Below are positions 16,623 to 63,395 of a stretch of 64,000 bases of DNA, one piece after another (position 1 is the stretch's first letter; each line of letters opens with the position of its first letter). Source of the stretch: Escherichia coli (lineage in GTDB: Bacteria; Pseudomonadota; Gammaproteobacteria; Enterobacterales; Enterobacteriaceae); NCBI RefSeq assembly GCF_022846255.1, contig NZ_AP025682.1; one strand, written 5' to 3'. A program made the translations under genes and the position numbers. The notes below the pieces were generated by a model, which worked only from the letters and a program-made list of their open reading frames with translations, had not been told where the DNA came from and searched no databases.

Positions 16623-16658
16623 GCCCCTTCACGTATTCGTCGAAGGGGCATTTTTATT
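16623..16658 (+). terminator. Rho-independent terminator after hpaC
   Basis: GCCCCTTC...GAAGGGGC stem followed by ATTTTTATT run. Confidence 0.6.
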
Positions 16659-16701
16659 GTGATCTCAATCACATATCCACCCGATGAATAATTCTTGCCC
16701 A

Positions 16702-16750: not shown

Positions 16751-16885
16751 GTTATTTACCTTACTTTACGCGCGCGTAACTCTGGCAACATCACTGCAGG
16801 ATAGCGGTCAATTTACCTCCTCAAACGCAACGCAAACCTAGAACGGCTTCGGCCAACTATTAATCAATACATGCCAGGTTTTACT

Positions 16886-19036
16886 ATGGATACTAAAAAG
16901 ATATTCAAGCACATACCCTGGGTGATTCTTGGAATCATCGGTGCATTCTGCCTAGCGGTAGTTGCATTACGTCGGGGGGAGCACGTCAGTGCCCTGTGGA
17001 TCGTGGTCGCCTCTGTGTCAGTGTATCTGGTGGCTTATCGCTACTACAGTCTGTACATCGCCCAGAAGGTAATGAAACTCGACCCCACGCGCGCGACGCC
17101 TGCGGTTATTAACAACGACGGTCTGAACTATGTTCCGACCAACCGTTACGTGTTGTTTGGTCACCACTTCGCCGCTATCGCCGGTGCTGGTCCGCTGGTT
17201 GGTCCGGTTCTCGCCGCGCAGATGGGCTACCTGCCAGGTACGCTGTGGCTGCTGGCGGGGGTAGTGCTGGCCGGTGCGGTACAGGACTTTATGGTGCTGT
17301 TTATCTCCTCTCGCCGTAATGGCGCATCTCTTGGTGAGATGATCAAAGAAGAGATGGGGCCAGTACCGGGGACTATCGCGCTGTTTGGCTGTTTCTTAAT
17401 CATGATCATCATCCTCGCCGTCCTGGCGCTGATTGTGGTTAAAGCCCTGGCCGAAAGTCCGTGGGGTGTCTTCACCGTTTGCTCAACCGTACCGATTGCG
17501 CTGTTTATGGGTATCTACATGCGCTTTATTCGTCCGGGGCGTGTGGGTGAAGTCTCTGTCATTGGTATCGTGCTGCTGGTTGCCTCTATCTACTTCGGTG
17601 GCGTGATTGCTCACGATCCGTACTGGGGTCCGGCACTGACCTTTAAAGACACCACCATTACCTTCGCGCTGATTGGCTATGCGTTTGTTTCCGCACTGCT
17701 GCCAGTGTGGCTGATCCTCGCACCACGCGACTATCTGGCAACCTTCCTGAAAATCGGCGTTATCGTCGGCCTGGCGCTGGGTATCGTGGTGCTGAACCCG
17801 GAACTGAAAATGCCTGCGATGACCCAGTACATTGACGGTACTGGCCCGCTGTGGAAAGGCGCTCTGTTCCCGTTCCTGTTCATCACCATCGCCTGTGGTG
17901 CGGTATCTGGCTTCCACGCGCTGATCTCTTCCGGTACGACGCCGAAACTGCTGGCTAACGAAACCGACGCGCGTTTCATTGGCTACGGCGCAATGCTGAT
18001 GGAGTCCTTCGTGGCGATTATGGCGCTGGTTGCTGCGTCCATCATCGAACCGGGTCTTTACTTCGCGATGAATACCCCGCCTGCGGGCCTTGGCATCACC
18101 ATGCCTAACCTGCATGAAATGGGTGGCGAGAACGCGCCGATCATCATGGCGCAGCTGAAAGACGTTACCGCACACGCGGCAGCGACTGTCAGCTCCTGGG
18201 GCTTCGTGATTTCGCCAGAGCAGATCCTGCAAACCGCGAAAGACATTGGTGAGCCTTCTGTCCTGAACCGTGCAGGTGGTGCGCCGACGCTGGCGGTAGG
18301 TATCGCTCACGTGTTCCACAAAGTGCTGCCGATGGCTGACATGGGCTTCTGGTATCACTTCGGTATTCTGTTCGAAGCCCTGTTCATCCTGACCGCGCTG
18401 GATGCGGGTACCCGTTCTGGCCGCTTTATGCTGCAAGACCTGTTGGGTAACTTCGTGCCGTTCCTGAAAAAAACCGACTCTCTGGTTGCCGGTATCATCG
18501 GTACTGCGGGCTGTGTGGGTCTGTGGGGCTACCTGCTGTATCAGGGCGTGGTCGATCCGCTGGGCGGCGTTAAGAGCCTGTGGCCGCTGTTCGGTATCTC
18601 CAACCAGATGCTGGCAGCCGTAGCGCTGGTACTGGGCACCGTTGTGCTGATTAAGATGAAGCGCACCCAATACATCTGGGTAACTGTTGTTCCGGCTGTA
18701 TGGCTGCTTATCTGCACCACCTGGGCGCTGGGCCTGAAACTGTTCAGTACCAACCCGCAGATGGAAGGCTTCTTCTACATGGCAAGCCAGTACAAAGAGA
18801 AGATTGCTAACGGTACTGACCTGACGGCGCAGCAGATTGCCAACATGAACCACATCGTTGTGAACAACTACACCAACGCAGGCCTGAGTATTCTGTTCCT
18901 GATTGTGGTGTACAGTATCATCTTCTACGGTTTCAAAACCTGGCTGAAGGTGCGTAACAGCGACAAACGTACTGACAAAGAAACTCCGTACGTTCCAATC
19001 CCGGAAGGCGGCGTGAAGATCTCTTCGCACCACTAA
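16886..19036 (+). CDS. btsT: CstA-family pyruvate/H+ symporter
   Basis: About 716 aa from MDTKKIFKHIPWVILG; polytopic CstA-like transporter; followed by yjiX-yjiA as in E. coli. Confidence 0.9.
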   Translation: MDTKKIFKHIPWVILGIIGAFCLAVVALRRGEHVSALWIVVASVSVYLVAYRYYSLYIAQKVMKLDPTRATPAVINNDGLNYVPTNRYVLFGHHFAAIAGAGPLVGPVLAAQMGYLPGTLWLLAGVVLAGAVQDFMVLFISSRRNGASLGEMIKEEMGPVPGTIALFGCFLIMIIILAVLALIVVKALAESPWGVFTVCSTVPIALFMGIYMRFIRPGRVGEVSVIGIVLLVASIYFGGVIAHDPYWGPALTFKDTTITFALIGYAFVSALLPVWLILAPRDYLATFLKIGVIVGLALGIVVLNPELKMPAMTQYIDGTGPLWKGALFPFLFITIACGAVSGFHALISSGTTPKLLANETDARFIGYGAMLMESFVAIMALVAASIIEPGLYFAMNTPPAGLGITMPNLHEMGGENAPIIMAQLKDVTAHAAATVSSWGFVISPEQILQTAKDIGEPSVLNRAGGAPTLAVGIAHVFHKVLPMADMGFWYHFGILFEALFILTALDAGTRSGRFMLQDLLGNFVPFLKKTDSLVAGIIGTAGCVGLWGYLLYQGVVDPLGGVKSLWPLFGISNQMLAAVALVLGTVVLIKMKRTQYIWVTVVPAVWLLICTTWALGLKLFSTNPQMEGFFYMASQYKEKIANGTDLTAQQIANMNHIVVNNYTNAGLSILFLIVVYSIIFYGFKTWLKVRNSDKRTDKETPYVPIPEGGVKISSHH

Positions 19037-46264: not shown

Positions 46265-47668
46265 TCAGGCCTTTGCTTCGTTGAAGCGCAGTAAACGGAA
46301 ACCTGTAGAAGCATAGATCAACGCAAATATCATCGAGCAGAAACAGAATACACAGTACGGCAAGTAACTAAACGTCGGCACGCCTAGTGTTGTCGCCATA
46401 TACAATCCGGCAGCTGACCACGGAATAATTGGCGCGCTCATGGTGCCAAAATCTTCCAGCGTTCGGGCTAAGACTAACGGTGATAAATTAAGATCTTCGA
46501 ATTTCTTCATCATCAATTCAGATATAACAATCTTATTCAAACCATCAGAACCGGTAAGTAAGTTAATGATGATCGCTAAAACACCGCTTGCCAGAATAGC
46601 GCCAAAGGCACTTTTTATTTTGTTTGCCGCACTTTGTAATGTGACATCCATCATTCCTGTTCCCGTCAGGATGCCAGCAAACATCATGGCGCAGATAATA
46701 AATGACAGGAATCCGCCCTGATTATTCAGGCCGCCTTGTTCAAGCAGTTCTTTCACAGAAGGTAACAGCGTCGTTGAATCAGTGATCATCGTCAGACGGA
46801 AACCACTCATTGTGGCCTTAATACCTTCGGCCAGCGGGAAACCTTGATACAGCCATCCAACCAATACGGCCACGAACGCACTGCTTAATAATGCCGGTAC
46901 TGTAGGCAAACGCAAAAAGGTAAAGCACAGAACAATAAGCATAGGCAGTAGCGGTAACAGACCAAACTTATATAACTCTTTGAGCTGTACCAGCATCTGC
47001 ATGCTTTCTGGTGAAATAGAGCCCGTAGAAGTATGAATCATTCCCAGCCAGGTAAAAAACAGCAGGCTAATAATCGTTGATGGGATGGTCGTCCAGAGTA
47101 GATATTTAATCAGATCATAAAGTTTAGTTTTGGTTACCGCTGAAGTCAGGTTAGTGGTATCACTTAACGGTGAAAGTTTGTCGCCAAAATAAGCCCCGGT
47201 AACAATGGCTGCCGCCAGAATTGGAAGATCGGCATGTAAGCCGGAACCGATGCCCATTAATGCAACACCAATAGAAGCGACAGATCCCCATGATGCCCCG
47301 GAAACATAGGACAATACTGCGTTCAGAAAAAACGCTATGGCATAAAGCCATGCGGGCGCAACCAGTAACATACCGTAATAAACCAGCATCGGCAGTGTAC
47401 CTGCATAGCTCCATGTCGCGACCATAAAGCCAACGAAAATAACGATAAGTACTGGTGCCATCACCGCCGAAATCTTATCGATAATAAACCCCTGGATTTC
47501 ATCCCAGGTATATTTCAGCTTAGCCATTGCAATAATGCAGGAAAACGCCGCTGAAATTAATAAACAGACGCTGGCAGGCCAGCCCATAACACCGATGCCA
47601 ACAACCAACACGATCATCATAAAAATGATCGGTGTAAGCGCGACATAAAAACTGGGTTTTTCTCTCAT
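46265..47668 (-). CDS. NhaC-family transporter (Na+/H+ antiporter-like)
   Basis: 467 aa polytopic membrane protein; 12 nt upstream of the FAD-oxidoreductase stop (same operon). Confidence 0.65.
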   Translation of the reverse strand: MREKPSFYVALTPIIFMMIVLVVGIGVMGWPASVCLLISAAFSCIIAMAKLKYTWDEIQGFIIDKISAVMAPVLIVIFVGFMVATWSYAGTLPMLVYYGMLLVAPAWLYAIAFFLNAVLSYVSGASWGSVASIGVALMGIGSGLHADLPILAAAIVTGAYFGDKLSPLSDTTNLTSAVTKTKLYDLIKYLLWTTIPSTIISLLFFTWLGMIHTSTGSISPESMQMLVQLKELYKFGLLPLLPMLIVLCFTFLRLPTVPALLSSAFVAVLVGWLYQGFPLAEGIKATMSGFRLTMITDSTTLLPSVKELLEQGGLNNQGGFLSFIICAMMFAGILTGTGMMDVTLQSAANKIKSAFGAILASGVLAIIINLLTGSDGLNKIVISELMMKKFEDLNLSPLVLARTLEDFGTMSAPIIPWSAAGLYMATTLGVPTFSYLPYCVFCFCSMIFALIYASTGFRLLRFNEAKA

Positions 47669-47682
47669 AACTTTATTCCCTG

Positions 47683-49053
47683 TTAAAAGACTTTTACGCC
47701 ATTTTGCTGTAAGCGTTCCTGTACCGTCTGAATATCTACCTGTGAAACGGTAGTGTTATTTTTAATGGCAATAGCAGCGGCAGTCCCTGCACCTTCTCCA
47801 GTGACAATACAACACCCCATATTACGGATTGTCGCGTAGGCGAAATTATCTGCATCGATTGCCCGTCCGCAAACCAACAGGTTTTCAACTTGCTGCGGAA
47901 TCATTACGCCATAAGGGATTTGAAAATAGTTCGCTTCAAGAGGTAATTTAAGATGACCATTTCCATCTATAAACTCAGGGAATACCCCTATTGAATCCGC
48001 ATGACGTCCCTCATTACAAATATCATTTTCAGTTAATTGTGTTCGCCCGAGAATATGTCTTGATTCCCTTGTTCCCACCGTCATACCGAAGTTTTTTAAT
48101 TGTGCCTGTTCAAATCCTGGCTGGAATTGACGCAACGCTTCTATCGCCTGCATGGCTTGTTTGCGGCCCTCTATTTCGGCACGCGTCAGGTCAAAAACAT
48201 CTGTACAATCAACGGCAGGGATGCTGACAACGTTCAAGTAATTCGCATCACCATACTCGGTGACCGTACTCCAGGAACCGCCTAATGTCACATCTTCAGG
48301 AATAATTCCTGCCGCCTTTCCTTTCGCAAAGACTTTACCCAGATAAGGGCTAAACATATCGCGACAAGATTCATGAACATCATAAGACCAGTTTTTATTT
48401 TCTTCATCCGCCCCCCAGTCTCCATATTTAGGTTCCGTGCTCTTAATATTTTGCATGAACGCGTTTTTATTTATATTTGCGCAACTAAAAACGGTTGTCA
48501 TACACATTAGCTCTTCGCGTTCACGCTTAATAAATGGTGCTCCGGCAAACCATGCAATATCAGCATCGCCAGTACAGTCAATAATGACATTTGCCAAAAT
48601 AGCCTGACGACCAGATTTACTCTCTGTTATTACGCCGAGTAAATTATTGCCCTGCTTGATAACATCAACGGCGGTAATGTGTAGTACGCGGCGCACACCT
48701 GCCTGTTCAAGCATTGCATCCGCAACCAGTTTGAAACGCTCGGCGTTAATAGCCTGACTATTCGATTGCGGCTCAGGGCTGGACGCCCCCATTGATTTTG
48801 CCGTTTCTTCTATTTCGCGTGCCAGTCCACCTGACTCTACCGTATTTTCATGACGCCACCAGGCAATTGACTCGACGCCAGCCGTTGTCATCATTCCGCC
48901 AAAACAACCGAAACGTTCAATCAGCATAGTAGCTGCGCCTTCACGAGCGGCACTCATTGCTGCGGCAATACCCGATGGACCACCACCAACAACTAACACT
49001 TCCGTGGTTGCCAGCACAGGTATATTACGAGCGGGTTCCAGATAAAATTCCAT
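47683..49053 (-). CDS. FAD-dependent oxidoreductase
   Basis: 456 aa; N-terminal Rossmann dinucleotide motif VLVVGGGPSGIAAAM; paralogue of the gene at 58207-59571. Confidence 0.7.
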   Translation of the reverse strand: MEFYLEPARNIPVLATTEVLVVGGGPSGIAAAMSAAREGAATMLIERFGCFGGMMTTAGVESIAWWRHENTVESGGLAREIEETAKSMGASSPEPQSNSQAINAERFKLVADAMLEQAGVRRVLHITAVDVIKQGNNLLGVITESKSGRQAILANVIIDCTGDADIAWFAGAPFIKREREELMCMTTVFSCANINKNAFMQNIKSTEPKYGDWGADEENKNWSYDVHESCRDMFSPYLGKVFAKGKAAGIIPEDVTLGGSWSTVTEYGDANYLNVVSIPAVDCTDVFDLTRAEIEGRKQAMQAIEALRQFQPGFEQAQLKNFGMTVGTRESRHILGRTQLTENDICNEGRHADSIGVFPEFIDGNGHLKLPLEANYFQIPYGVMIPQQVENLLVCGRAIDADNFAYATIRNMGCCIVTGEGAGTAAAIAIKNNTTVSQVDIQTVQERLQQNGVKVF

Positions 49054-49339
49054 ACTTTATCTCCGTATTCAATAATTGAGTAAAACAATCCCCCGCGCTT
49101 ATATAAGCGCGTTGATATTTTTAATTATTAACAAGCAACATCATGCTAATACAGACATACAAGGAGATCATCTCTCTTTGCCTGTTTTTTATTATTTCAG
49201 GAGTGTAAACACATTTTCCGCCTCCCTGGCTAATAACCACATTGGCATTTATGGAGCACATCACAATATTTCAATACCATTAAAGCACTGCACCAAAGTG
49301 AAACACTGCGACATTAAAATTATTTCAATTTGAAAAGCA

Positions 49340-51289
49340 TCAATCTGCATGCTCAACATTTGGATAGAGATTATAGATTTTAAGTTTGCGCCATAATGTT
49401 GTACGACCAATTTTTAATACTTCAGCTGCTTTAGTTAGATTCCATTCGCAGACACGACATGTATGCTCAATAGCTTGCATCTCCAATTCTGCCAGTGAAG
49501 TAAGATGAGGGATATCATCGTCGCCACTACTGTTATTTTGTCGGATATCCAGAGGAATATTCTCTAACCCGAGGACAAGTCGATTGCAGTTAATAAATAC
49601 CTTCTCCATTCGATTTTTGAACTCGGAGATGTTCCCAGGCCAACGGTACTCAAGCAGAACTGAATTTGCGTCAGGCGTGATTGTCATTTTTTTTCGAGTG
49701 CGCTCCTGATACTTATCAATAATATCGTCAATCATTTGCTTGAGATCTTCACGACGTTTGCGCAATGGCGGAATTTCAATTTCATTCATGGAGATCTCAT
49801 AATATAGCTGTCGGCTAAAAGCCCCTTGTTGCACGTACTCACGTAAAGAACTACTGGTACATGTAATCAGGCGAAAGCGTACGGGGATCAAACGATGGCT
49901 GTCTGAGCGAGTAACAAGCCCCGTTTTCAATACTTTCAATAAAACACTCTGAACTTCCCCTGATAGATATTCGACTTTATCCAGATATAAGGTGCCATTA
50001 TGAGCCAGTTCAAATTTCGATGGCGAAGGGCCAACATCAGAGCCAAGAAGTTCGTGTAAGATATTTTCTGGTGATAGCATCTGACAATCTACAGAAATAA
50101 ATGGCCCATCACGTTGCTCGCTCTCATTATGTATTGCCATCGCCAAACTCAATTTTCCCACACCTTCTTCGCCATTGATCAAAATCGGAGAGATGGATTT
50201 AATTGCCCGGCGAGCGATAAGTAATACCTGCTTCATACCACCTGAAGCCGCATGTAAACTGTCAAAGGTAAAATTTGCATTAGTGCTTATTTGCTGTTGG
50301 GCTATTTTCCTGATTTTGTCTAATGGATGAAGAAAAAGCAAAAACGAACCATCGCTTAACGGGCGAAGGGTAACCATAAGTTCAATAAATTCGCCACGGC
50401 ATTCGAGGACAATTTGCTTTTGCGATAGTTTGTTTCGTTGTGTAATTGCCTCATTCAAAATCGGCGGAAATACGAATCCTTTTCGGATGTTCTGACCAAT
50501 TAAACTTTCTTTATCAATATTCAGTAATGTTTGTGCTTGAGAATTAACCATCGTAATTAAAGAATGACTATTCCAACAAATAAAACCGTCATCCATACAT
50601 TCAATCACAGCATTATGCTGGCAAAGTACTTTGTTTATTAACTTTTGTTCATTCTCAATATAGATATAATTAGCGATTTCTGTTGCACATGAATATGATG
50701 TTTTTAATTTAACAAGCTCGGCGGTGGTTTCAATTATACATACAATGTATCCATGTATATTACCATAATAATCAATGACCGGAGCTGCGCTCATCGCATA
50801 ACAATGTAGCTGTTCACTAAAATGTTCTGCTCCTTCCAGTTGTGTATATAAATTTGTTTCCCGACAAAGACTATATACATTGGTTCCAATGCCATCTTCG
50901 GCCCATGACATACCAGATTCAATTCCTAACTCTCGCAATTGACTGGAATAATCGCCTGCTGCATTCAACGATAGAACCCAGCCGTGTGGGTCAATGATCA
51001 AAAATGCCAACCGGTCGTCACCAGCCAGGGTGAAATGGTCTTCAACAACTCTTTGTGAAATTCTAATAAACTCTTCGTTACGAGAAAAAATCGTCTGCAA
51101 TGTTTGCCCGGAAGCTTTGACAGGCGTGTTCCAGTGGCGAGGGTCACAATGCTTGAGACATTTTTGCCATGACCTCAGCATCACATGATTAGTCGAATTT
51201 GTCGCGACCCAACCATGCTTAACAAACATTTTCCATTTATTTTTTAGATCATTATGATACGACTCTTTATTCATTATAATAATATCCAT
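49340..51289 (-). CDS. DhaR-like transcriptional regulator (sensing domain + AAA+ sigma-54-interaction-like domain + Fis-type HTH)
   Basis: 649 aa; LINGEEGVGK atypical Walker A, SRQLYY and C-terminal GRTTLWRKLK HTH as in DhaR; no GAFTGA motif seen. Confidence 0.7.
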   Translation of the reverse strand: MDIIIMNKESYHNDLKNKWKMFVKHGWVATNSTNHVMLRSWQKCLKHCDPRHWNTPVKASGQTLQTIFSRNEEFIRISQRVVEDHFTLAGDDRLAFLIIDPHGWVLSLNAAGDYSSQLRELGIESGMSWAEDGIGTNVYSLCRETNLYTQLEGAEHFSEQLHCYAMSAAPVIDYYGNIHGYIVCIIETTAELVKLKTSYSCATEIANYIYIENEQKLINKVLCQHNAVIECMDDGFICWNSHSLITMVNSQAQTLLNIDKESLIGQNIRKGFVFPPILNEAITQRNKLSQKQIVLECRGEFIELMVTLRPLSDGSFLLFLHPLDKIRKIAQQQISTNANFTFDSLHAASGGMKQVLLIARRAIKSISPILINGEEGVGKLSLAMAIHNESEQRDGPFISVDCQMLSPENILHELLGSDVGPSPSKFELAHNGTLYLDKVEYLSGEVQSVLLKVLKTGLVTRSDSHRLIPVRFRLITCTSSSLREYVQQGAFSRQLYYEISMNEIEIPPLRKRREDLKQMIDDIIDKYQERTRKKMTITPDANSVLLEYRWPGNISEFKNRMEKVFINCNRLVLGLENIPLDIRQNNSSGDDDIPHLTSLAELEMQAIEHTCRVCEWNLTKAAEVLKIGRTTLWRKLKIYNLYPNVEHAD

Positions 51290-51543
51290 TCAAGTCATTT
51301 TCAGAACTTGTATCAGAATGCTATGCCAGTAAGCTTGATCAAACGCAATAATATCTAGCCTGGATCATTACAAAAACAGACCTTATCAACAATGTAATCA
51401 CACATACATTAGAAATAATAACCGTTAAAGCAATAAAAAACGAATGATACATTAGATAAATTTTAAAACTGCCAACAACATCTGAAATCTTTGCGTTTGA
51501 TATTTATAATTATTCAAACTGAAACAACACAGGCATACGAGTT

Positions 51544-51558
51544 GTTTCACTGTGAAAC
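51544..51558. promoter_or_regulatory. 15-bp palindrome GTTTCAC-T-GTGAAAC upstream of gcl-like operon (candidate operator)
   Basis: Symmetric except for the centre base; located about 110 bp upstream of the gcl-like ATG in the divergent regulator/operon intergenic region. Confidence 0.35.
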
Positions 51559-51667
51559 AGTGCAGCGAAATTTGTTCTGCCCTTTTATTTCCTCAAAGAT
51601 ATTTCATCGTTAAATTCCAAAATTGACTGACTATTCAACTCAGCGTAAATATCAGGAGAAATAATGT

Positions 51668-53407
51668 ATGGCGAGGATGCGTGCAATCGAAGCTGCAGTA
51701 GAAATACTGAAAAAAGAAGGCATTAGCGTTGCTTTTGGTGTACCCGGCGCAGCAATAAACCCACTCTATGCCGCGATGAAAAAATCAGGCGGTATTGATC
51801 ATATTCTGGCCCGTCATGTTGAGGGCGCCTCGCATATGGCTGAAGGTTACACCCGCAGTCAGAATGGCAATATTGGCGTGTGTATTGGCACATCAGGCCC
51901 TGCGGGCACTGATATGATTACCGGGCTGTATTCTGCCTCTGCGGATTCCATTCCTATTCTCTGCATTACTGGTCAAGCTCCCGTAGGAAAACTTCATAAA
52001 GAAGATTTCCAGGCCGTCGATATTGAGGCTATCGCCACGCCAGTAACCAAAATGGCTCGCACAATTCTCGAAGCGGGTCAGTTGCCGGGGATATTCCAGA
52101 AAGCCTTCTGGGAAATGCGTTCAGGCCGCCCTGGCCCGGTTCTTTTAGATCTCCCTTTTGATGTTCAGATGACCGAAATTGAGTTTGATATCGATCTCTA
52201 TCAGCCACTCACTCCCTGGAAACCCCAGGCGACGCTGGCCCAGGCCGTACGCGCATTAGAAATGCTAAATGACGCCGAAAAGCCCGTCATCATCGCTGGC
52301 GGTGGCATTATTAACGCCGAAGCGAGTGAATTGTTGCGTGAGTTTGTCGAGTTAACTGGCGTTCCCGTCATTCAAACCTTACGCGGTTGGGGCGCTTTAT
52401 CAGACGATCACCCCCTAATGATTGGTCGCATGGGATGTCAGGCGGGTCATCGCTATGGTAACGCCAGTTATCTGGCCTCAGATTTTGTTTTTGGTATCGG
52501 TAACCGTTGGGCAAACCGCCATACCGGAGCCATTGAGACCTACACCGAAGGCCGCAAATTCATTCATGTTGATATCGAACCTGCACAAATTGGCCGGATA
52601 TTTGCGCCGGATCTGGGCATTGTTTCTGATGCTGAAAGCGCCTTAACGCTATTTATTCAGGTCGCCCGTGATATGAAGTCACGTGGAGAACTGAAAGACC
52701 GCAGTCGCTGGATTGCCGAATGTGCCGAGCGTAAACGCACAATGCTTCGTCGTTCAGACTTTGACTGCAATCCAATTAAACCGCAGCGCGTGTATCACGA
52801 AATGAATAAGGTTTTCGGACCGGAGACACGCTATATTTCGACAATTGGTCTGGCGCAAATCGCCGCAAACCAATTTTTACATGTTTACCGCCCACGCCAC
52901 TGGATTAATGCCTGTCAGGCTGGGCCGCTAGGCTGGACAATGCCCGCAGCACTGGGCGCGGTAAAAGCTGATCCATCTGTTCCCGTTGTGGCAATATCCG
53001 GTGATTACGATTTTCAGTTCTTGATTGAAGAATTAGCCGTCGGCGCACAATTTAATCTTCCGTATATCCATATTTTACTTAACAACGCTTATCTTGGTTT
53101 GATTCGTCAATCACAACGTGCATTTGATATTGATTATTGCGTTCAACTGTCATTTGAAAATATTAATGCTCCAGAAATTAATGGTTATGGCGTTGATCAT
53201 AAAGCTGTGGTTGAAGGATTAGGATGTAAAGCGATTCGCGTATTCGCATCACAGGATATTGCGCCTGCACTGCAAGAAGCCCAGCGTTTGCGTGACGAAT
53301 TTCACGTACCTGTTGTTGTGGAAATTATTACTGAACGCGTGACTAATATCGCTATGGGACCTGACATTAATAAAGTCACAGAATTTGAAGAAATTCTCGA
53401 TTTATAA
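51668..53407 (+). CDS. gcl: Glyoxylate carboligase (tartronate-semialdehyde synthase), TPP-dependent
   Basis: 579 aa; N-terminus [39 protein letters not shown]...[18 protein letters not shown] nearly identical in pattern to E. coli Gcl. Confidence 0.85.
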
Positions 53408-53419
53408 GGAAACAGGATT

Positions 53420-54202
53420 ATGGCAAAGTTTGCAGCAAATTTATCTATGCTCTTTACCGAGTATCCATTTATTGAACGTTTTGCACAAGCAAGTCACGCA
53501 GGATTCCACGGCGTTGAGTATCTTTTCCCCTATGACTTTTCCGCAGATGAGTTGGTTTCGCAACTGCATCAACATAATCTGACGCAGGTTCTGTTTAATC
53601 TTCCTGCGGGTAACTGGCAAGAGGGTGAACGGGGTATTGCATGTCATCCTGGTCGGGCAAAAGAATTTCAGGAGGGCGTTTCCAGGGCAATAGAGTATGC
53701 ATTGGCCCTTAATTGTTCACAAGTTAATTGCCTTGCAGGAAAACATCCAGGTGGTTATTCGCATGAACAATGTCATGAAACACTGGTCGAAAATTTGCGC
53801 TATGCAGTAGATAAATTGGCTTCTCATGGCATAAAGTTAGTTCTGGAAGCCATTAATACAAAAGATATTCCCGGTTTTTTTGTTAACAACACCAGACAAG
53901 CTCTCAATATTATTCATGATGTAAATCATCCTGATTTTCGCTATCAATACGATATTTATCATATGCAAATCATGGAAGGGAATATTGCTACAACAATCAA
54001 AAACAACCTGAATAACATTGGACATATTCAATTAGCCGATAACCCTGGGCGTCATGAACCAGGGACGGGAGAAATTAATTACCCGTGGTTGTTAAATTAT
54101 ATAGACCAGATTGGTTATCAGGGATGGATTGGTTGCGAATATGTTCCATCTACGACAACGACTGAAAGTCTACGCTGGCTAAAAAACGAGACTCAATTTT
54201 AA
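53420..54202 (+). CDS. hyi: Hydroxypyruvate isomerase
   Basis: 260 aa; N-terminus MAKFAANLSMLFTEYPFIERF matches Hyi (TIM-barrel); directly downstream of gcl. Confidence 0.8.
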   Translation: MAKFAANLSMLFTEYPFIERFAQASHAGFHGVEYLFPYDFSADELVSQLHQHNLTQVLFNLPAGNWQEGERGIACHPGRAKEFQEGVSRAIEYALALNCSQVNCLAGKHPGGYSHEQCHETLVENLRYAVDKLASHGIKLVLEAINTKDIPGFFVNNTRQALNIIHDVNHPDFRYQYDIYHMQIMEGNIATTIKNNLNNIGHIQLADNPGRHEPGTGEINYPWLLNYIDQIGYQGWIGCEYVPSTTTTESLRWLKNETQF

Positions 54203-54219
54203 TCCCTGAGGTATTTATC

Positions 54220-55107
54220 ATGAATATTGGATTTATCGGCACCGGCATAATGGGTAAGCCGATGGCTTATAATTTACAACAAGCCGGACATACTCTTTAT
54301 TTTTCAGCGCATTTTGAACCTGCACCGCAAGAGCTTATTGGTGAACGTGGCATTGTTTGCTCTACACCGCGTGAAGTCGCGCAGGAGTGTGAGGTCATCA
54401 TCACCATGCTCCCTGATACCCCACATGTTGAGGATGTTCTTTTTCATCCCAACTATGGCGTAATACACGGTTTAAGCCACGGGAAAATTGTGATTGATAT
54501 GAGTTCAATTTCCCCGGTTGCCACCAAAGCATTTGCACAACGTATTATCGCGGGAGGCGCGGAATATATCGATGCGCCCGTCTCTGGCGGTGAAGTTGGC
54601 GCGAAAGCCGGGACGCTTTCCATTATGGTTGGCGGATGTGAAGAGGTTTATTTGCAGATCAAACCGATTCTGGAATTGATGGGTAAAAATATCACTCTGG
54701 TCGGTAACGTCGGTGATGGTCAAACGTGCAAAGTCGCTAACCAAATTATTGTTGCACTGAATATTGAAGCGGTGGCTGAAGCCCTGCTCTTTGCCAGTAA
54801 ATCAGGTGCCGATCCCGCCCGCGTACGTGAAGCGCTGATGGGAGGGTTTGCCTCCTCTCGCGTGCTGGAAGTTCATGGCGAACGGATGATTAAAGGAACA
54901 TTCGAACCCGGTTTTCGTATTAGTCTGCATCAAAAAGATCTGAATCTGGCGCTGGAGAATGCCCGCCTGTTGAATACCCCGCTTCCTAACACGGCGACGA
55001 CACAGCAGTTATTTAGCGCCTGCGCCGCGCTCGGTGGTAAAGAGTGGGATCATTCTGCGTTAATTCGGGCGCTTGAAACACAAGCCAATTTCACTATCCG
55101 TAAATAA
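54220..55107 (+). CDS. glxR: Tartronate semialdehyde (2-hydroxy-3-oxopropionate) reductase
   Basis: 295 aa; NAD-binding GFIGTGIMGKPMAYNL at N-terminus; 3-hydroxyisobutyrate dehydrogenase family. Confidence 0.8.
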   Translation: MNIGFIGTGIMGKPMAYNLQQAGHTLYFSAHFEPAPQELIGERGIVCSTPREVAQECEVIITMLPDTPHVEDVLFHPNYGVIHGLSHGKIVIDMSSISPVATKAFAQRIIAGGAEYIDAPVSGGEVGAKAGTLSIMVGGCEEVYLQIKPILELMGKNITLVGNVGDGQTCKVANQIIVALNIEAVAEALLFASKSGADPARVREALMGGFASSRVLEVHGERMIKGTFEPGFRISLHQKDLNLALENARLLNTPLPNTATTQQLFSACAALGGKEWDHSALIRALETQANFTIRK

Positions 55108-55181
55108 TGAATTAAGGGAACCACCGGTTCCCTTCGTTCACTCATTGCCCTGCCCCATTCCCCTATTTTGAGAGACCTGCT

Positions 55182-56324
55182 ATGAAGATAGTTATCTCCC
55201 CCGACTCCTTTAAAGAATGCCTTCCTGCATGGAAAGTCGCCGAAGCGCTGGCAACCGGCTGGCGCAAGGTCCTGCCTGGCAGCCAACTGGTGTGTTTGCC
55301 CGTGGCTGATGGCGGCGAAGGCACGCTCGAAACACTCATTCATGCGACTGACGGTACGTTTTACACTAAAAAAGTCACCGGACCGCTTGGCGAATCAATA
55401 CATGCGCAATACGGTATTTTAGGCAACCAAACCACCGCAGTGATAGAACTGGCACAAGCTTCAGGGCTGGAACTGGTTTCTCCTGTCCAGCGTTCTCCCC
55501 TTTATACGACGTCGTTTGGCACTGGCGAACTTATTCTCGCCGCCCTGGAACACAATATTGATACCGTTATTCTATGCCTGGGTGGCAGTGCTACAAATGA
55601 TGGCGGTATTGGGTTGATGTCGGCACTTGGCGCATCGTTTACAGACGCCGAAGGGCTATCAGTCTCTGTTAATGGGATGGGGCTGGCGGCAATTCACCAC
55701 ATTGACTTACAGCACCTCGATCCACGATTGAAAAATGTGAAATTTATTGCGGCCTGTGATGTCACCAACCCACTAACCGGCGATAACGGCGCGACCCGGG
55801 TTTTTGCTCAACAAAAAGGGGCCAGTGCTAACGACCTTGAGCAACTGGAACAGGGAATGAAAAACTATGCCCGTTGCATCTACCGTTGTTGTGGTAAAGA
55901 CGTCGATACGATACCCGGTTCTGGGGCGGCTGGCGGCGTTGGCGCGGCCTTGATGGCTTTTCTCGATGCTCGCTTACAACCGGGTATTTCGCTCGTGCTG
56001 GAAGCGATTCAATATACCCAACATTTAAAATACGCAGCATTGGCCATTGTCGGTGAAGGGAAATTAGATAGTCAGAGCCTGAATGGCAAAGCGCCCGTAG
56101 GCGCAGCCAAAGTTGCCCAGATGATGGGCGTTCCGGTTATCGCAATTGCCGGGTATATCGATGATCAACTTGATCTGAATGAGTTACGCCAGTGTGGAAT
56201 AGAAGCCTGTTTTTCCGTCGTCAATGGTCCTTGTGATTTCCCCACCGCGCTGAGTCAGGGAGAAAATAATTTAATTCGTCTTGGGGAAAATCTGGCGGGA
56301 TATTTTCGTGCGATCCTGAGTTAA
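55182..56324 (+). CDS. Glycerate kinase
   Basis: 380 aa; N-terminus MKIVISPDSFKECL characteristic of GlxK/GarK glycerate kinases. Confidence 0.8.
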   Translation: MKIVISPDSFKECLPAWKVAEALATGWRKVLPGSQLVCLPVADGGEGTLETLIHATDGTFYTKKVTGPLGESIHAQYGILGNQTTAVIELAQASGLELVSPVQRSPLYTTSFGTGELILAALEHNIDTVILCLGGSATNDGGIGLMSALGASFTDAEGLSVSVNGMGLAAIHHIDLQHLDPRLKNVKFIAACDVTNPLTGDNGATRVFAQQKGASANDLEQLEQGMKNYARCIYRCCGKDVDTIPGSGAAGGVGAALMAFLDARLQPGISLVLEAIQYTQHLKYAALAIVGEGKLDSQSLNGKAPVGAAKVAQMMGVPVIAIAGYIDDQLDLNELRQCGIEACFSVVNGPCDFPTALSQGENNLIRLGENLAGYFRAILS

Positions 56325-62005: not shown

Positions 62006-62117
62006 ATCATTCCTCGCGTAACTTGTTTTGCTTCACTGTTAACCTACTCGTTGCATCCAGTAGCGGCAAACATTTCATTCGCGAAAAATTATGTTTTATG
62101 ATCGCGCTGTAAAAAAC

Positions 62118-62133
62118 ATCATCTGCAGATGAT
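62118..62133. promoter_or_regulatory. 16-bp perfect palindrome ATCATCTGCAGATGAT in the divergent gldA-like/dhaK intergenic region (candidate operator)
   Basis: Exact reverse-complement symmetry, AT-rich flanks, between two divergently transcribed operons. Confidence 0.4.
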
Positions 62134-62330
62134 AATAAAAAACACTTTTCATGCCTTAATCACAATATATCAATATCCACGCTGGTCCCATTTCATTTTG
62201 GAACAACACAATGAATTAACTGTTTCATTATGAATCTTATTATCGTGCGATTTGTTTTATTGCGGCTGGAGAATTAATCTCGCAAGCATATTTAGCGCGA
62301 TTTACGTAATTTATCAGAACAGGAATGACT

Positions 62331-63395
62331 ATGAAGAAATTAATTAACCAGATTGATTCTGTTGTCACAGAACAAATGGAAGGACTCATCGCCACCTGGC
62401 CACACCTGCAGGCAAATTACGCGCCCCGATATGTGTGGTGCAAACAAACCGATAATGCAGTGGCGCTGATTTCAGGCGGCGGCTCAGGCCATGAACCACT
62501 GCATGCAGGTTTTGTCGGTATGGGAATGTTAACCGGTGCATGTCCTGGTGAAATCTTCACATCGCCCACACCAGATCAAATGATCGAATGTGCCAAAGCG
62601 GTTGATAATGGTTCTGGCGTTCTGTTTTTCATCAAAAATTACACTGGCGATATTCTGAATTTCGAAACGGCAGTCGAGATGTTACACGAAGAAGGCATCG
62701 CCGTTGGGACCGTCATTATTGATGATGATGTAGCGGTAAAAGATAGCCTGTATACAGCCGGACGTCGCGGTGTTGCGGGTACAGTTTTTGTTGAAAAGAT
62801 TGTCGGTGCGGCTGCACTTCAGGGATATAACCTGGGGCAGTGCGAGCAACTTGGCAAAGATGTTAACAATGCCACCCGTTCTTTTGGCATCGCACTGTCA
62901 GCCTGTACGGTTCCCGCCGCGGGAAAACCCTCATTTGAACTGGCTGATAATGAAATCGAATTTGGTGTCGGGATCCACGGTGAACCCGGCATTGAACGCC
63001 GCACTTTGCAAGATCTGAACACTTTAATCGACAGCGTGATAGCGCAATTACTGGATAATACCCCCTGGCGACGCACATTACGCCATTGGGATCGCCATGC
63101 GGGGGGATGGATTGACGCATCATCAATGAATGAGTCATTCGATCAAAATGCCGAATATATTGTGTTAATTAACGGACTTGGCAGCACGCCTGAATCAGAG
63201 TTATATGGTGTAGCCAGGGTATTTATGTGCGCCGCACAGCGCCAGGGAATTAAAATTAGCCGCCAGTTGGTCGGTAATTATTGTACATCATTAGATATGG
63301 CCGGATTTTCCATTAGCCTGCTGAAATGTACCCCAGAGTTTTTGCAACTTTGGGATGCCCCGGTCAATACGCCAGCGCTTCGTTGGGGATGTTAA
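62331..63395 (+). CDS. dhaK: Dihydroxyacetone kinase, DhaK subunit
   Basis: About 354 aa from MKKLINQ with AGGAA RBS; GGGSGHEP motif and strong pattern match to E. coli DhaK. Confidence 0.85.
   Translation: MKKLINQIDSVVTEQMEGLIATWPHLQANYAPRYVWCKQTDNAVALISGGGSGHEPLHAGFVGMGMLTGACPGEIFTSPTPDQMIECAKAVDNGSGVLFFIKNYTGDILNFETAVEMLHEEGIAVGTVIIDDDVAVKDSLYTAGRRGVAGTVFVEKIVGAAALQGYNLGQCEQLGKDVNNATRSFGIALSACTVPAAGKPSFELADNEIEFGVGIHGEPGIERRTLQDLNTLIDSVIAQLLDNTPWRRTLRHWDRHAGGWIDASSMNESFDQNAEYIVLINGLGSTPESELYGVARVFMCAAQRQGIKISRQLVGNYCTSLDMAGFSISLLKCTPEFLQLWDAPVNTPALRWGC

Follow-up and report, generated by a model that had tools for sequence, protein, structure and literature searches.

Putative DhaR-type operator for IbeR upstream of the gcl operon in the GimA island of Escherichia coli

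The control of E. coli DhaR by DhaK and DhaL is said to go back to work of Bachler in 2005 and of Shi in 2014, and the dhaK-dhaR intergenic region of strain K-12 is presumably bound by DhaR. TyrR is an EBP-homologue AAA+ regulator with a C-terminal HTH, which acts at sigma-70 promoters through TGTAAA-N6-TTTACA boxes. DhaR has been described as an EBP homologue that is active at a sigma-70 promoter and under the control of DhaK and DhaL (PMC10084136), and DhaR and TyrR have been grouped in one family (PMC8743547). The operons of the GimA island were defined as ptnIPKC, cglDTEC, gcxKRCI and ibeRAT (PMC2878320). Its regulator IbeR was called an "RpoS-like regulator" with an interacting "substrate" still to be identified, and deletion of ibeR was found to raise the level of ibeA mRNA (PMC4359115). 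Both ibeA and GimA serve widely as virulence markers of ExPEC, NMEC and APEC, and their regulation is poorly defined. Our literature search, with the DhaR characterisation of Bachler 2005 outside its scope, found no paper giving a DhaR operator sequence or a link between IbeR and DhaR.

Here, we analysed a palindrome between ibeR and gcl in a 64,000-nucleotide stretch of E. coli DNA, the whole of which is referred to as the window. On the evidence of the sequences compared below, the palindrome is probably (probability about 0.78) a DhaR-type operator for IbeR, acting as a sigma-70 activator, and would have its centre near position -56 relative to the gcl operon promoter.

The palindrome and its surroundings in the GimA island

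The window was identified as the GimA island of ExPEC, and the gene termed DhaR-like in the preliminary description is ibeR (49340-51274, minus strand), a dhaR paralogue and the only regulator gene of the island. For ibeR, an open reading frame of 649 aa beginning at 51289 is the longest possible; the ATG at 51274 (644 aa) is the start given in RefSeq and is backed by all homologues. The ibeR-gcl region was found in 246 of 5426 complete E. coli genomes with 99-100% identity. In strain A0 34/86, the island sits between hypT (yjiE) and iraD (yjiD), with an nhaC-like gene (ibeT), ibeA and "dhaR" on one strand and gcl, hyi, a reductase gene and a glycerate kinase gene on the other, followed by a BCCT gene, a small ORF, genes for an FAD oxidoreductase, an MFS transporter and a glycerol dehydrogenase, and then dhaK, dhaL and ptsP.

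Three operons of the window are putative targets. The gcxCIRK operon (51668-56324, plus strand; gcl, hyi, glxR-like, glxK) encodes a glyoxylate carboligase (gcl, 51668-53407; a 579-aa ThDP enzyme), a hydroxypyruvate isomerase (53420-54202), a tartronate-semialdehyde reductase-like protein (54220-55107) and a glycerate kinase (55182-56324), all on the plus strand. On the minus strand lie ibeA (47683-49053), encoding an FAD-dependent oxidoreductase known as an invasion and H2O2-resistance factor, and next after it ibeT (46265-47668). The dhaK-like gene (62325-63395, plus strand) scored 460 bits on the DhaK model TIGR02363 (cut-off 406) and is the first gene of a DhaK/DhaL/DhaM-EI operon. An Rfam scan of 45-64 kb gave no RNA family.

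The palindrome was originally reported as a 15-bp near-perfect repeat, GTTTCAC-T-GTGAAAC, at 51544-51558, about 110 bp upstream of the gcl-like start in the intergenic region common to that gene and the DhaR-like regulator. All of this was confirmed: the reported stretch, GTTTCACTGTGAAAC, is a perfect 7-1-7 inverted repeat, "near-perfect" referring to the unpaired centre base only, and it extends by one pair to a perfect 8-1-8 inverted repeat at 51543-51559, TGTTTCAC-T-GTGAAACA. The full palindrome ends 109 bp before the gcl ATG at 51668 (117 bp from its centre) and lies in a 393-bp intergenic region (51275-51667), with gcl on one side and the divergent ibeR on the other.

The window contains six perfect inverted repeats whose arms measure 8 or more and whose spacer is 0-3, compared with 3.15 in shuffles, while the specific pattern of this palindrome was matched twice with at most 2 mismatches, compared with 0.24 expected. 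When 3 mismatches were allowed, the other two non-coding matches both fell within one 320-bp intergenic region of the same island. Since palindromes with 8-bp arms are not rare in themselves, the significance of the site lies in the identity, recurrence and conservation of its motif and not in its palindromicity.

Near the start of ibeR, a block at 51306-51352, CTTGTATCAGAA...AGCTTGATCAAACGCAATAAT, which includes the palindrome TTGATCAA, is shared by E. coli and P. lignolyticus and in part by Citrobacter, and may be the promoter of ibeR or an additional operator.

Spaced box pairs and the DhaR-family motif

The palindrome, box A (TGTTTCACTGTGAAACA, 51543-51559, no strand assigned), matches the repeat TGTTTCA-N3-TGAAACA at 14 of 14 positions and is the strong, gcl-proximal DhaR-type box. 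Its partner on the ibeR side, box B (TTATTCAAACTGAAACA, 51510-51526, no strand assigned), matches at 12 of 14 positions and lies 33 bp (about three helical turns) upstream. When the window was scanned for this repeat, nine matches of at least 11/14 were obtained compared with 2.4 expected; three were singletons inside genes and the other six formed three pairs, spaced 32-33 bp, in three GimA intergenic regions. Pair 1 is formed by boxes B and A in the ibeR-gcl region (starts 51510 and 51543, 33 bp apart). Pair 2, CATTTCATTTTGGAACA (62189-62205) and TGTTTCATTATGAATCT (62221-62237), 32 bp apart and without assigned strand, lies in the divergent intergenic region of the gldA-like and dhaK-like genes, with the centre of the proximal box 96 bp before the dhaK-like ATG (62325). 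Pair 3, TGCACCAAAGTGAAACA (49289-49305) and TATTTCAATTTGAAAAG (49321-49337), also 32 bp apart and without assigned strand, directly follows the ibeR stop codon, its box centres being 244 and 276 bp upstream of the ibeA ATG (49053). For ibeR as well as for ibeA, the nearest box centre (51518 and 49297, respectively) is exactly 244 bp from the ATG; the two upstream regions were compared for homology and their similarity was limited to the boxes, and the common distance may be a coincidence.

A position weight matrix was then trained independently on 138 boxes from 39 non-GimA loci. Its top four matches in the 64-kb window were all GimA boxes, at 62221 (18.9 bits), 51543 (15.4 bits), 62189 (14.9 bits) and 49321 (9.0 bits), and three matches reached at least 14 bits compared with 0.07 expected. 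The weaker partners, box B at 51510 (6.0 bits) and the box at 49289 (2.0 bits), scored low with this matrix, so these two are credible only through their spacing and conservation.

The same repeat was found outside the island. Between dhaK and dhaR of E. coli K-12 lie ATGTTTCATAGTGAAACAT and, 31 bp off, ATGTTCCATATTGAAACTT, corresponding to the 17-bp boxes TGTTTCATAGTGAAACA and TGTTCCATATTGAAACT (NC_000913.3, 1250955-1250971 and 1250986-1251002, 31 bp apart); ATGTTTCATAGTGAAACAT differs from the GimA palindrome solely in the 3-bp spacer. In addition, 80 DhaR-family loci of other species were collected from one-genome-per-species contigs by means of the family-specific peptides IGRTTLWRK and an MDD motif. 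Sites matching TGTTTCA-N3-TGAAACA at 12 or more of 14 positions numbered 63 in the 761 kb of these loci, compared with 2.35 in shuffles. When all exact 6-N(0-8)-6 palindromes of the 80 loci were enumerated, unseeded by the GimA site, GTTTCA-N3-TGAAAC ranked first (21 loci) and GTTCCA-N3-TGGAAC ranked third. Across 84 loci, the spacing within box pairs was 31 bp in 30 cases, 32 bp in 37, 33 bp in 9 and 34 bp in 6, any other spacing of 18-60 bp occurring at most once, and shuffled loci gave about 1.4 pairs per replicate for all spacings together; because many of the loci come from closely related genera, these site and pair counts do not represent independent events. In about half of the 84 loci, the fetched flanks contained no box pair. 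The pattern of paired boxes persists from Vibrionaceae to Enterobacteriaceae. A scan restricted to the 800 bp upstream of each regulator gene missed most of the family sites, because the operators often adjoin dhaK or gldA and not the regulator gene.

Among 79 family pairs, -10-like hexamers were most frequent at a distance of exactly 44 bp from the flanking box centre (27 pairs on one flank and 29 on the other), which places the box near -56 of a sigma-70 promoter. From this comparison, the TGTTTCA-N3-TGAAACA repeats are assigned as the DhaR operator, with a cross-species definition of paired repeats 31-34 bp apart and a box centre about 44 bp away from a -10 element. The GimA palindrome carries the features by which such operators were recognised, namely the match to the repeat, a partner at 31-34 bp, a location beside a DhaR-family regulator gene (with sister pairs at the dhaK-like gene and ibeA), and conservation against diverging flanks.

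The conservation analysis suggested in the preliminary description was carried out, and the palindrome is kept in the orthologous islands of two other genera. IbeR has relatives in Pluralibacter lignolyticus (77% identical) and Citrobacter sp. NCU1 (62% identical) that are encoded in islands of the same design, each of which carries the same three box pairs. The counterparts of box A are TGTTTCACTATGAAACA in P. lignolyticus and CGTTCCGTATTGAAACG in Citrobacter, and 12 of the 17 positions of box B are invariant across the three genera. The distances from the proximal box centre to the ATG in E. coli, P. lignolyticus and Citrobacter are 117, 115 and 117 bp for gcl, 96, 103 and 105 bp for dhaK, and 244, 243 and 240 bp for ibeA (in Citrobacter, a 52%-identical homologue), respectively. 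Positions invariant in the three genera were enriched in the boxes of all three regions: 22/34 inside versus 89/359 outside in the gcl-ibeR region (p=3.8e-6), 20/34 versus 81/272 upstream of ibeA (p=9e-4) and 25/34 versus 88/285 in the gldA-dhaK region (p=1.9e-6). Divergent E. coli alleles showed 8 intergenic substitutions with 0 in the boxes, too few for significance alone.

The island is modular. P. lignolyticus is without the gldA-like gene, and its dhaK is divergent from an MFS gene; in Citrobacter sp. NCU1, ibeA-ibeT are absent beside ibeR, and an IbeA homologue gene and an MFS gene lie elsewhere in the island with their own box pair. The box pairs move together with the operons across related islands.

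Several further elements were observed in and near these regions. Upstream of ibeA, a perfect 18-bp palindrome, CGCGCTTATATAAGCGCG (49094-49111), is situated about 40 nt before the start codon, in the long stretch (about 190-240 nt) between the boxes and the ibeA ATG; it is partly kept in P. lignolyticus and absent in Citrobacter, and could be a leader hairpin, an attenuator or the ibeR terminator. A second hairpin is present at 49160-49180. A CRP-like site with 2 mismatches, TGTGATGTGCTCCATA (49250-49265, minus strand), lies about 40 bp downstream of the ibeA-proximal box, and a better one, TGTGA-N6-CCACA, occupies the same place in P. lignolyticus, which suggests a possible cAMP-CRP input to ibeA. 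In the gldA-like/dhaK-like region, GTTTTATGATCGCGCTGTAAAAA (62093-62114) is almost invariant in the three genera. This block differs from the DhaR boxes and might represent the leftward operon's promoter or a site for another regulator. A perfect 16-bp palindrome in the same region, ATCATCTGCAGATGAT (62118-62133), is not kept in Citrobacter or P. lignolyticus and is therefore probably fortuitous. At a distance from these regions, a perfect intergenic CRP core, TGTGATCTCAATCACA (16658-16673), lies upstream of a CstA-family gene (16871-19036) that follows hpaB/hpaC-like genes, an arrangement which we take to resemble the known CRP-dependent yjiY/btsT promoter.

IbeR, the promoter context and competing readings

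In Pfam, IbeR has the domain architecture GAF-PAS-AAA+-HTH_8, including Sigma54_activat and AAA-lid. It scored 985.8 bits on the NCBIfam DhaR equivalog NF008485 (cut-off 551), and the best PDB match of its sensor domain was DhaR (4LRX, E=5e-40), at an overall identity to K-12 DhaR of 31-33%. The HTH recognition helix, IGRTTLWRK, was invariant in 13 aligned sequences comprising IbeR, Vibrio and canonical DhaR clades. As in DhaR, the GAFTGA loop is missing from IbeR, and the DE of Walker B is replaced by DK. By domain architecture, model score, recognition helix and GAFTGA absence, IbeR is classified as a DhaR-type regulator.

A candidate weak sigma-70 promoter of the gcl operon was located at 51572-51600 (plus strand), with the -35 element TTGTTC (51572-51577), a 17-bp spacer and the -10 element AAAGAT (51595-51600). 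In this geometry, box A is near -56 and box B near -89. The -10 element is at +44 from the centre of box A; it matches the consensus at 3 of 6 positions and was not called by the promoter scanner. No convincing promoter emerged when the three GimA intergenic regions and the K-12 region were scanned for the sigma-70 consensus. ATTTG at the offset of the gcl promoter is kept in the three genera, and ATTTGTT also occurs downstream of the dhaK-like proximal box; on the dhaK side of the K-12 region, CACAAT is found at the same +44 offset.

The core-genome DhaR instead of IbeR could be the main binder of the palindrome, in which case the island would be wired into the dihydroxyacetone circuit of its host and the targets of IbeR would lie elsewhere. 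We consider this unlikely. The box pairs travel together with ibeR in three genera and flank it, the Vibrio-clade relatives of IbeR also have pairs beside their own dhaK/gldA genes, IbeR is the sole regulator that the island encodes, and exclusive control by DhaR would leave the conserved HTH of IbeR without a nearby target. On the other side, DhaR has a recognition helix identical to that of IbeR, the K-12 repeat equals the GimA palindrome except for the spacer, and 5383 of 5426 E. coli genomes contain the canonical dhaK-dhaR region, which means that essentially all GimA-positive strains have both proteins; because of the identical helix and the wide occurrence of this region, the core DhaR may still act as a second binder. 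The words TGTGA and TGAAAC/GTTTCA in the palindrome would suit a global regulator whose half-site is similar, CRP (TGTGA) or Cra/FruR (TGAAAC), and GimA-dependent invasion reportedly responds to carbon source. However, no match to TGTGA-N6-TCACA with at most 2 mismatches overlaps the palindrome, and P. lignolyticus (TATGA) and Citrobacter have kept GTTTCA/TGAAAC but not TGTGA. The Cra consensus has the opposite half-site order without spacer, TGAAAC directly followed by GTTTCA, which does not fit the arrangement GTTTCA-N3-TGAAAC. This reading is very unlikely.

The palindrome could also be a sigma-54 enhancer (UAS), where bound IbeR would use ATP-driven remodelling to activate a -24/-12 promoter as ordinary enhancer-binding proteins do. 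However, searches of the three GimA intergenic regions (ibeR-gcl, 51275-51667; ibeR-ibeA; gldA-dhaK) found no -24/-12 element, TGGCACG-N4-TTGCW, with up to 3 mismatches, and DhaR, which shares with IbeR the lack of GAFTGA and the DK for DE, is described at a sigma-70 promoter (PMC10084136). Such an enhancer is highly improbable in our view, even though IbeR carries Sigma54_activat, AAA-lid and HTH_8 domains and inverted-repeat UAS pairs about 100 bp upstream of a gene are typical of enhancer-binding proteins. Just as improbable is a palindrome without regulatory role, arisen by chance in AT-rich intergenic DNA or serving as a hairpin or terminator. Perfect 8-arm palindromes exceed the shuffle expectation only about 2-fold in the window, which favours chance, but the cross-genus conservation (p=3.8e-6), the recurrence as spaced pairs and the independent matrix score speak against chance, and a 1-nt loop cannot form an RNA hairpin, no T-run follows and no terminator-like site was found in 51200-51720. 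As a CRP site, a sigma-54 promoter and a terminator, the palindrome was examined and rejected.

The proposed IbeR regulon and its comparison with known systems

The preliminary description had proposed a regulator-binding site for the divergent DhaR-like protein that gives island-specific control. The motif match, the first rank of the motif in the 80 DhaR-family loci, the partner box, the conservation and the recognition helix, all computational, support this proposal; it was incomplete and not wrong, since the site is half of a bipartite operator and two more operator pairs exist in the island. The identity of the motif, its recurrence, pairing and conservation and the features of the protein were observed directly. 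From these we infer binding by IbeR, the direction of its effect, the transcription start site and the signal, as set out in the following model.

The palindrome would be the promoter-proximal, high-affinity half of a bipartite operator consisting of two 17-bp repeats 33 bp apart from centre to centre, each of which probably binds one Fis-type HTH dimer of IbeR. Since the boxes are three helical turns apart, the two dimers would share one face of the DNA. IbeR would activate the weak sigma-70 promoter of the gcl-hyi-glxR-glxK operon from positions of about -56 and -89, sigma-54 being uninvolved. The equivalent pairs before the dhaK-like operon and ibeA-ibeT would unite the island in a single regulon of IbeR. 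In analogy to DhaR of E. coli, the DhaK and DhaL paralogues of the island probably set the activity of IbeR, with DhaL::ADP as co-activator and DhaK as co-repressor, which would couple expression to the presence of the substrate of the kinase.

The rise of ibeA mRNA in the ibeR mutant (PMC4359115) fits repression or read-through and not simple activation, and is compatible with direct control at the ibeA pair. On a further-reaching interpretation, GimA-positive ExPEC would have two DhaR paralogues, core DhaR and IbeR, with identical helices and near-identical operators; a trigger-enzyme circuit, its DhaK/DhaL-type kinase subunits sensing a small ketose or aldehyde, would directly turn ibeA on or off; cross-talk between the dihydroxyacetone sensor of the host and the island would be possible; and IbeR would be a metabolite-gated local activator/repressor of all four GimA operons and not an "RpoS-like regulator". 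We offer this interpretation tentatively, rating it somewhat below even odds.

Reading the palindrome as a DhaR-type operator would give the island a concrete regulon with six boxes and three promoters, a likely signal path via the island DhaK/DhaL paralogues and a possible link to the host DhaR. The biology would be the extension of a known mechanism and not a new one.

Among the known systems, TyrR is similar to IbeR in its paired palindromic boxes, which begin with TGT, end with ACA and serve sigma-70 promoters, whereas its half-site and spacer are different and IbeR scored 145 bits on the TyrR model (cut-off 576). The IbeR-like DhaR regulators of Vibrionaceae are closer (41-47% identical to IbeR). 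In Vibrio sp. CAU 1672 (locus L026), for instance, pairs 33 bp apart are located upstream of the regulator gene and in a divergent dhaK/gldA-like region, while no gcl or ibeA-type operons occur in the fetched flanks, gene functions there being assigned from ORF sizes and order only.

The dhaK-dhaR region of K-12 has the same 17-bp inverted repeat (TGTTTCATAGTGAAACA versus GimA TGTTTCACTGTGAAACA) in the same two-box layout (31 versus 33 bp), with the strong box on the side of the catabolic operon that is activated and with a divergent regulator gene. Its regulator has the same domain architecture, the identical helix and no GAFTGA, and no sigma-54 promoter is present, although the two regulators are 31-33% identical overall. 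The K-12 boxes are 72-103 bp from the dhaR start and the GimA boxes 236-276 bp from the ibeR start, which makes autoregulation of ibeR less certain. Finally, the K-12 region has one operator pair, which controls dhaKLM, whereas the GimA island has three, of which the one studied here has gcl-hyi-glxR-glxK as its putative target.
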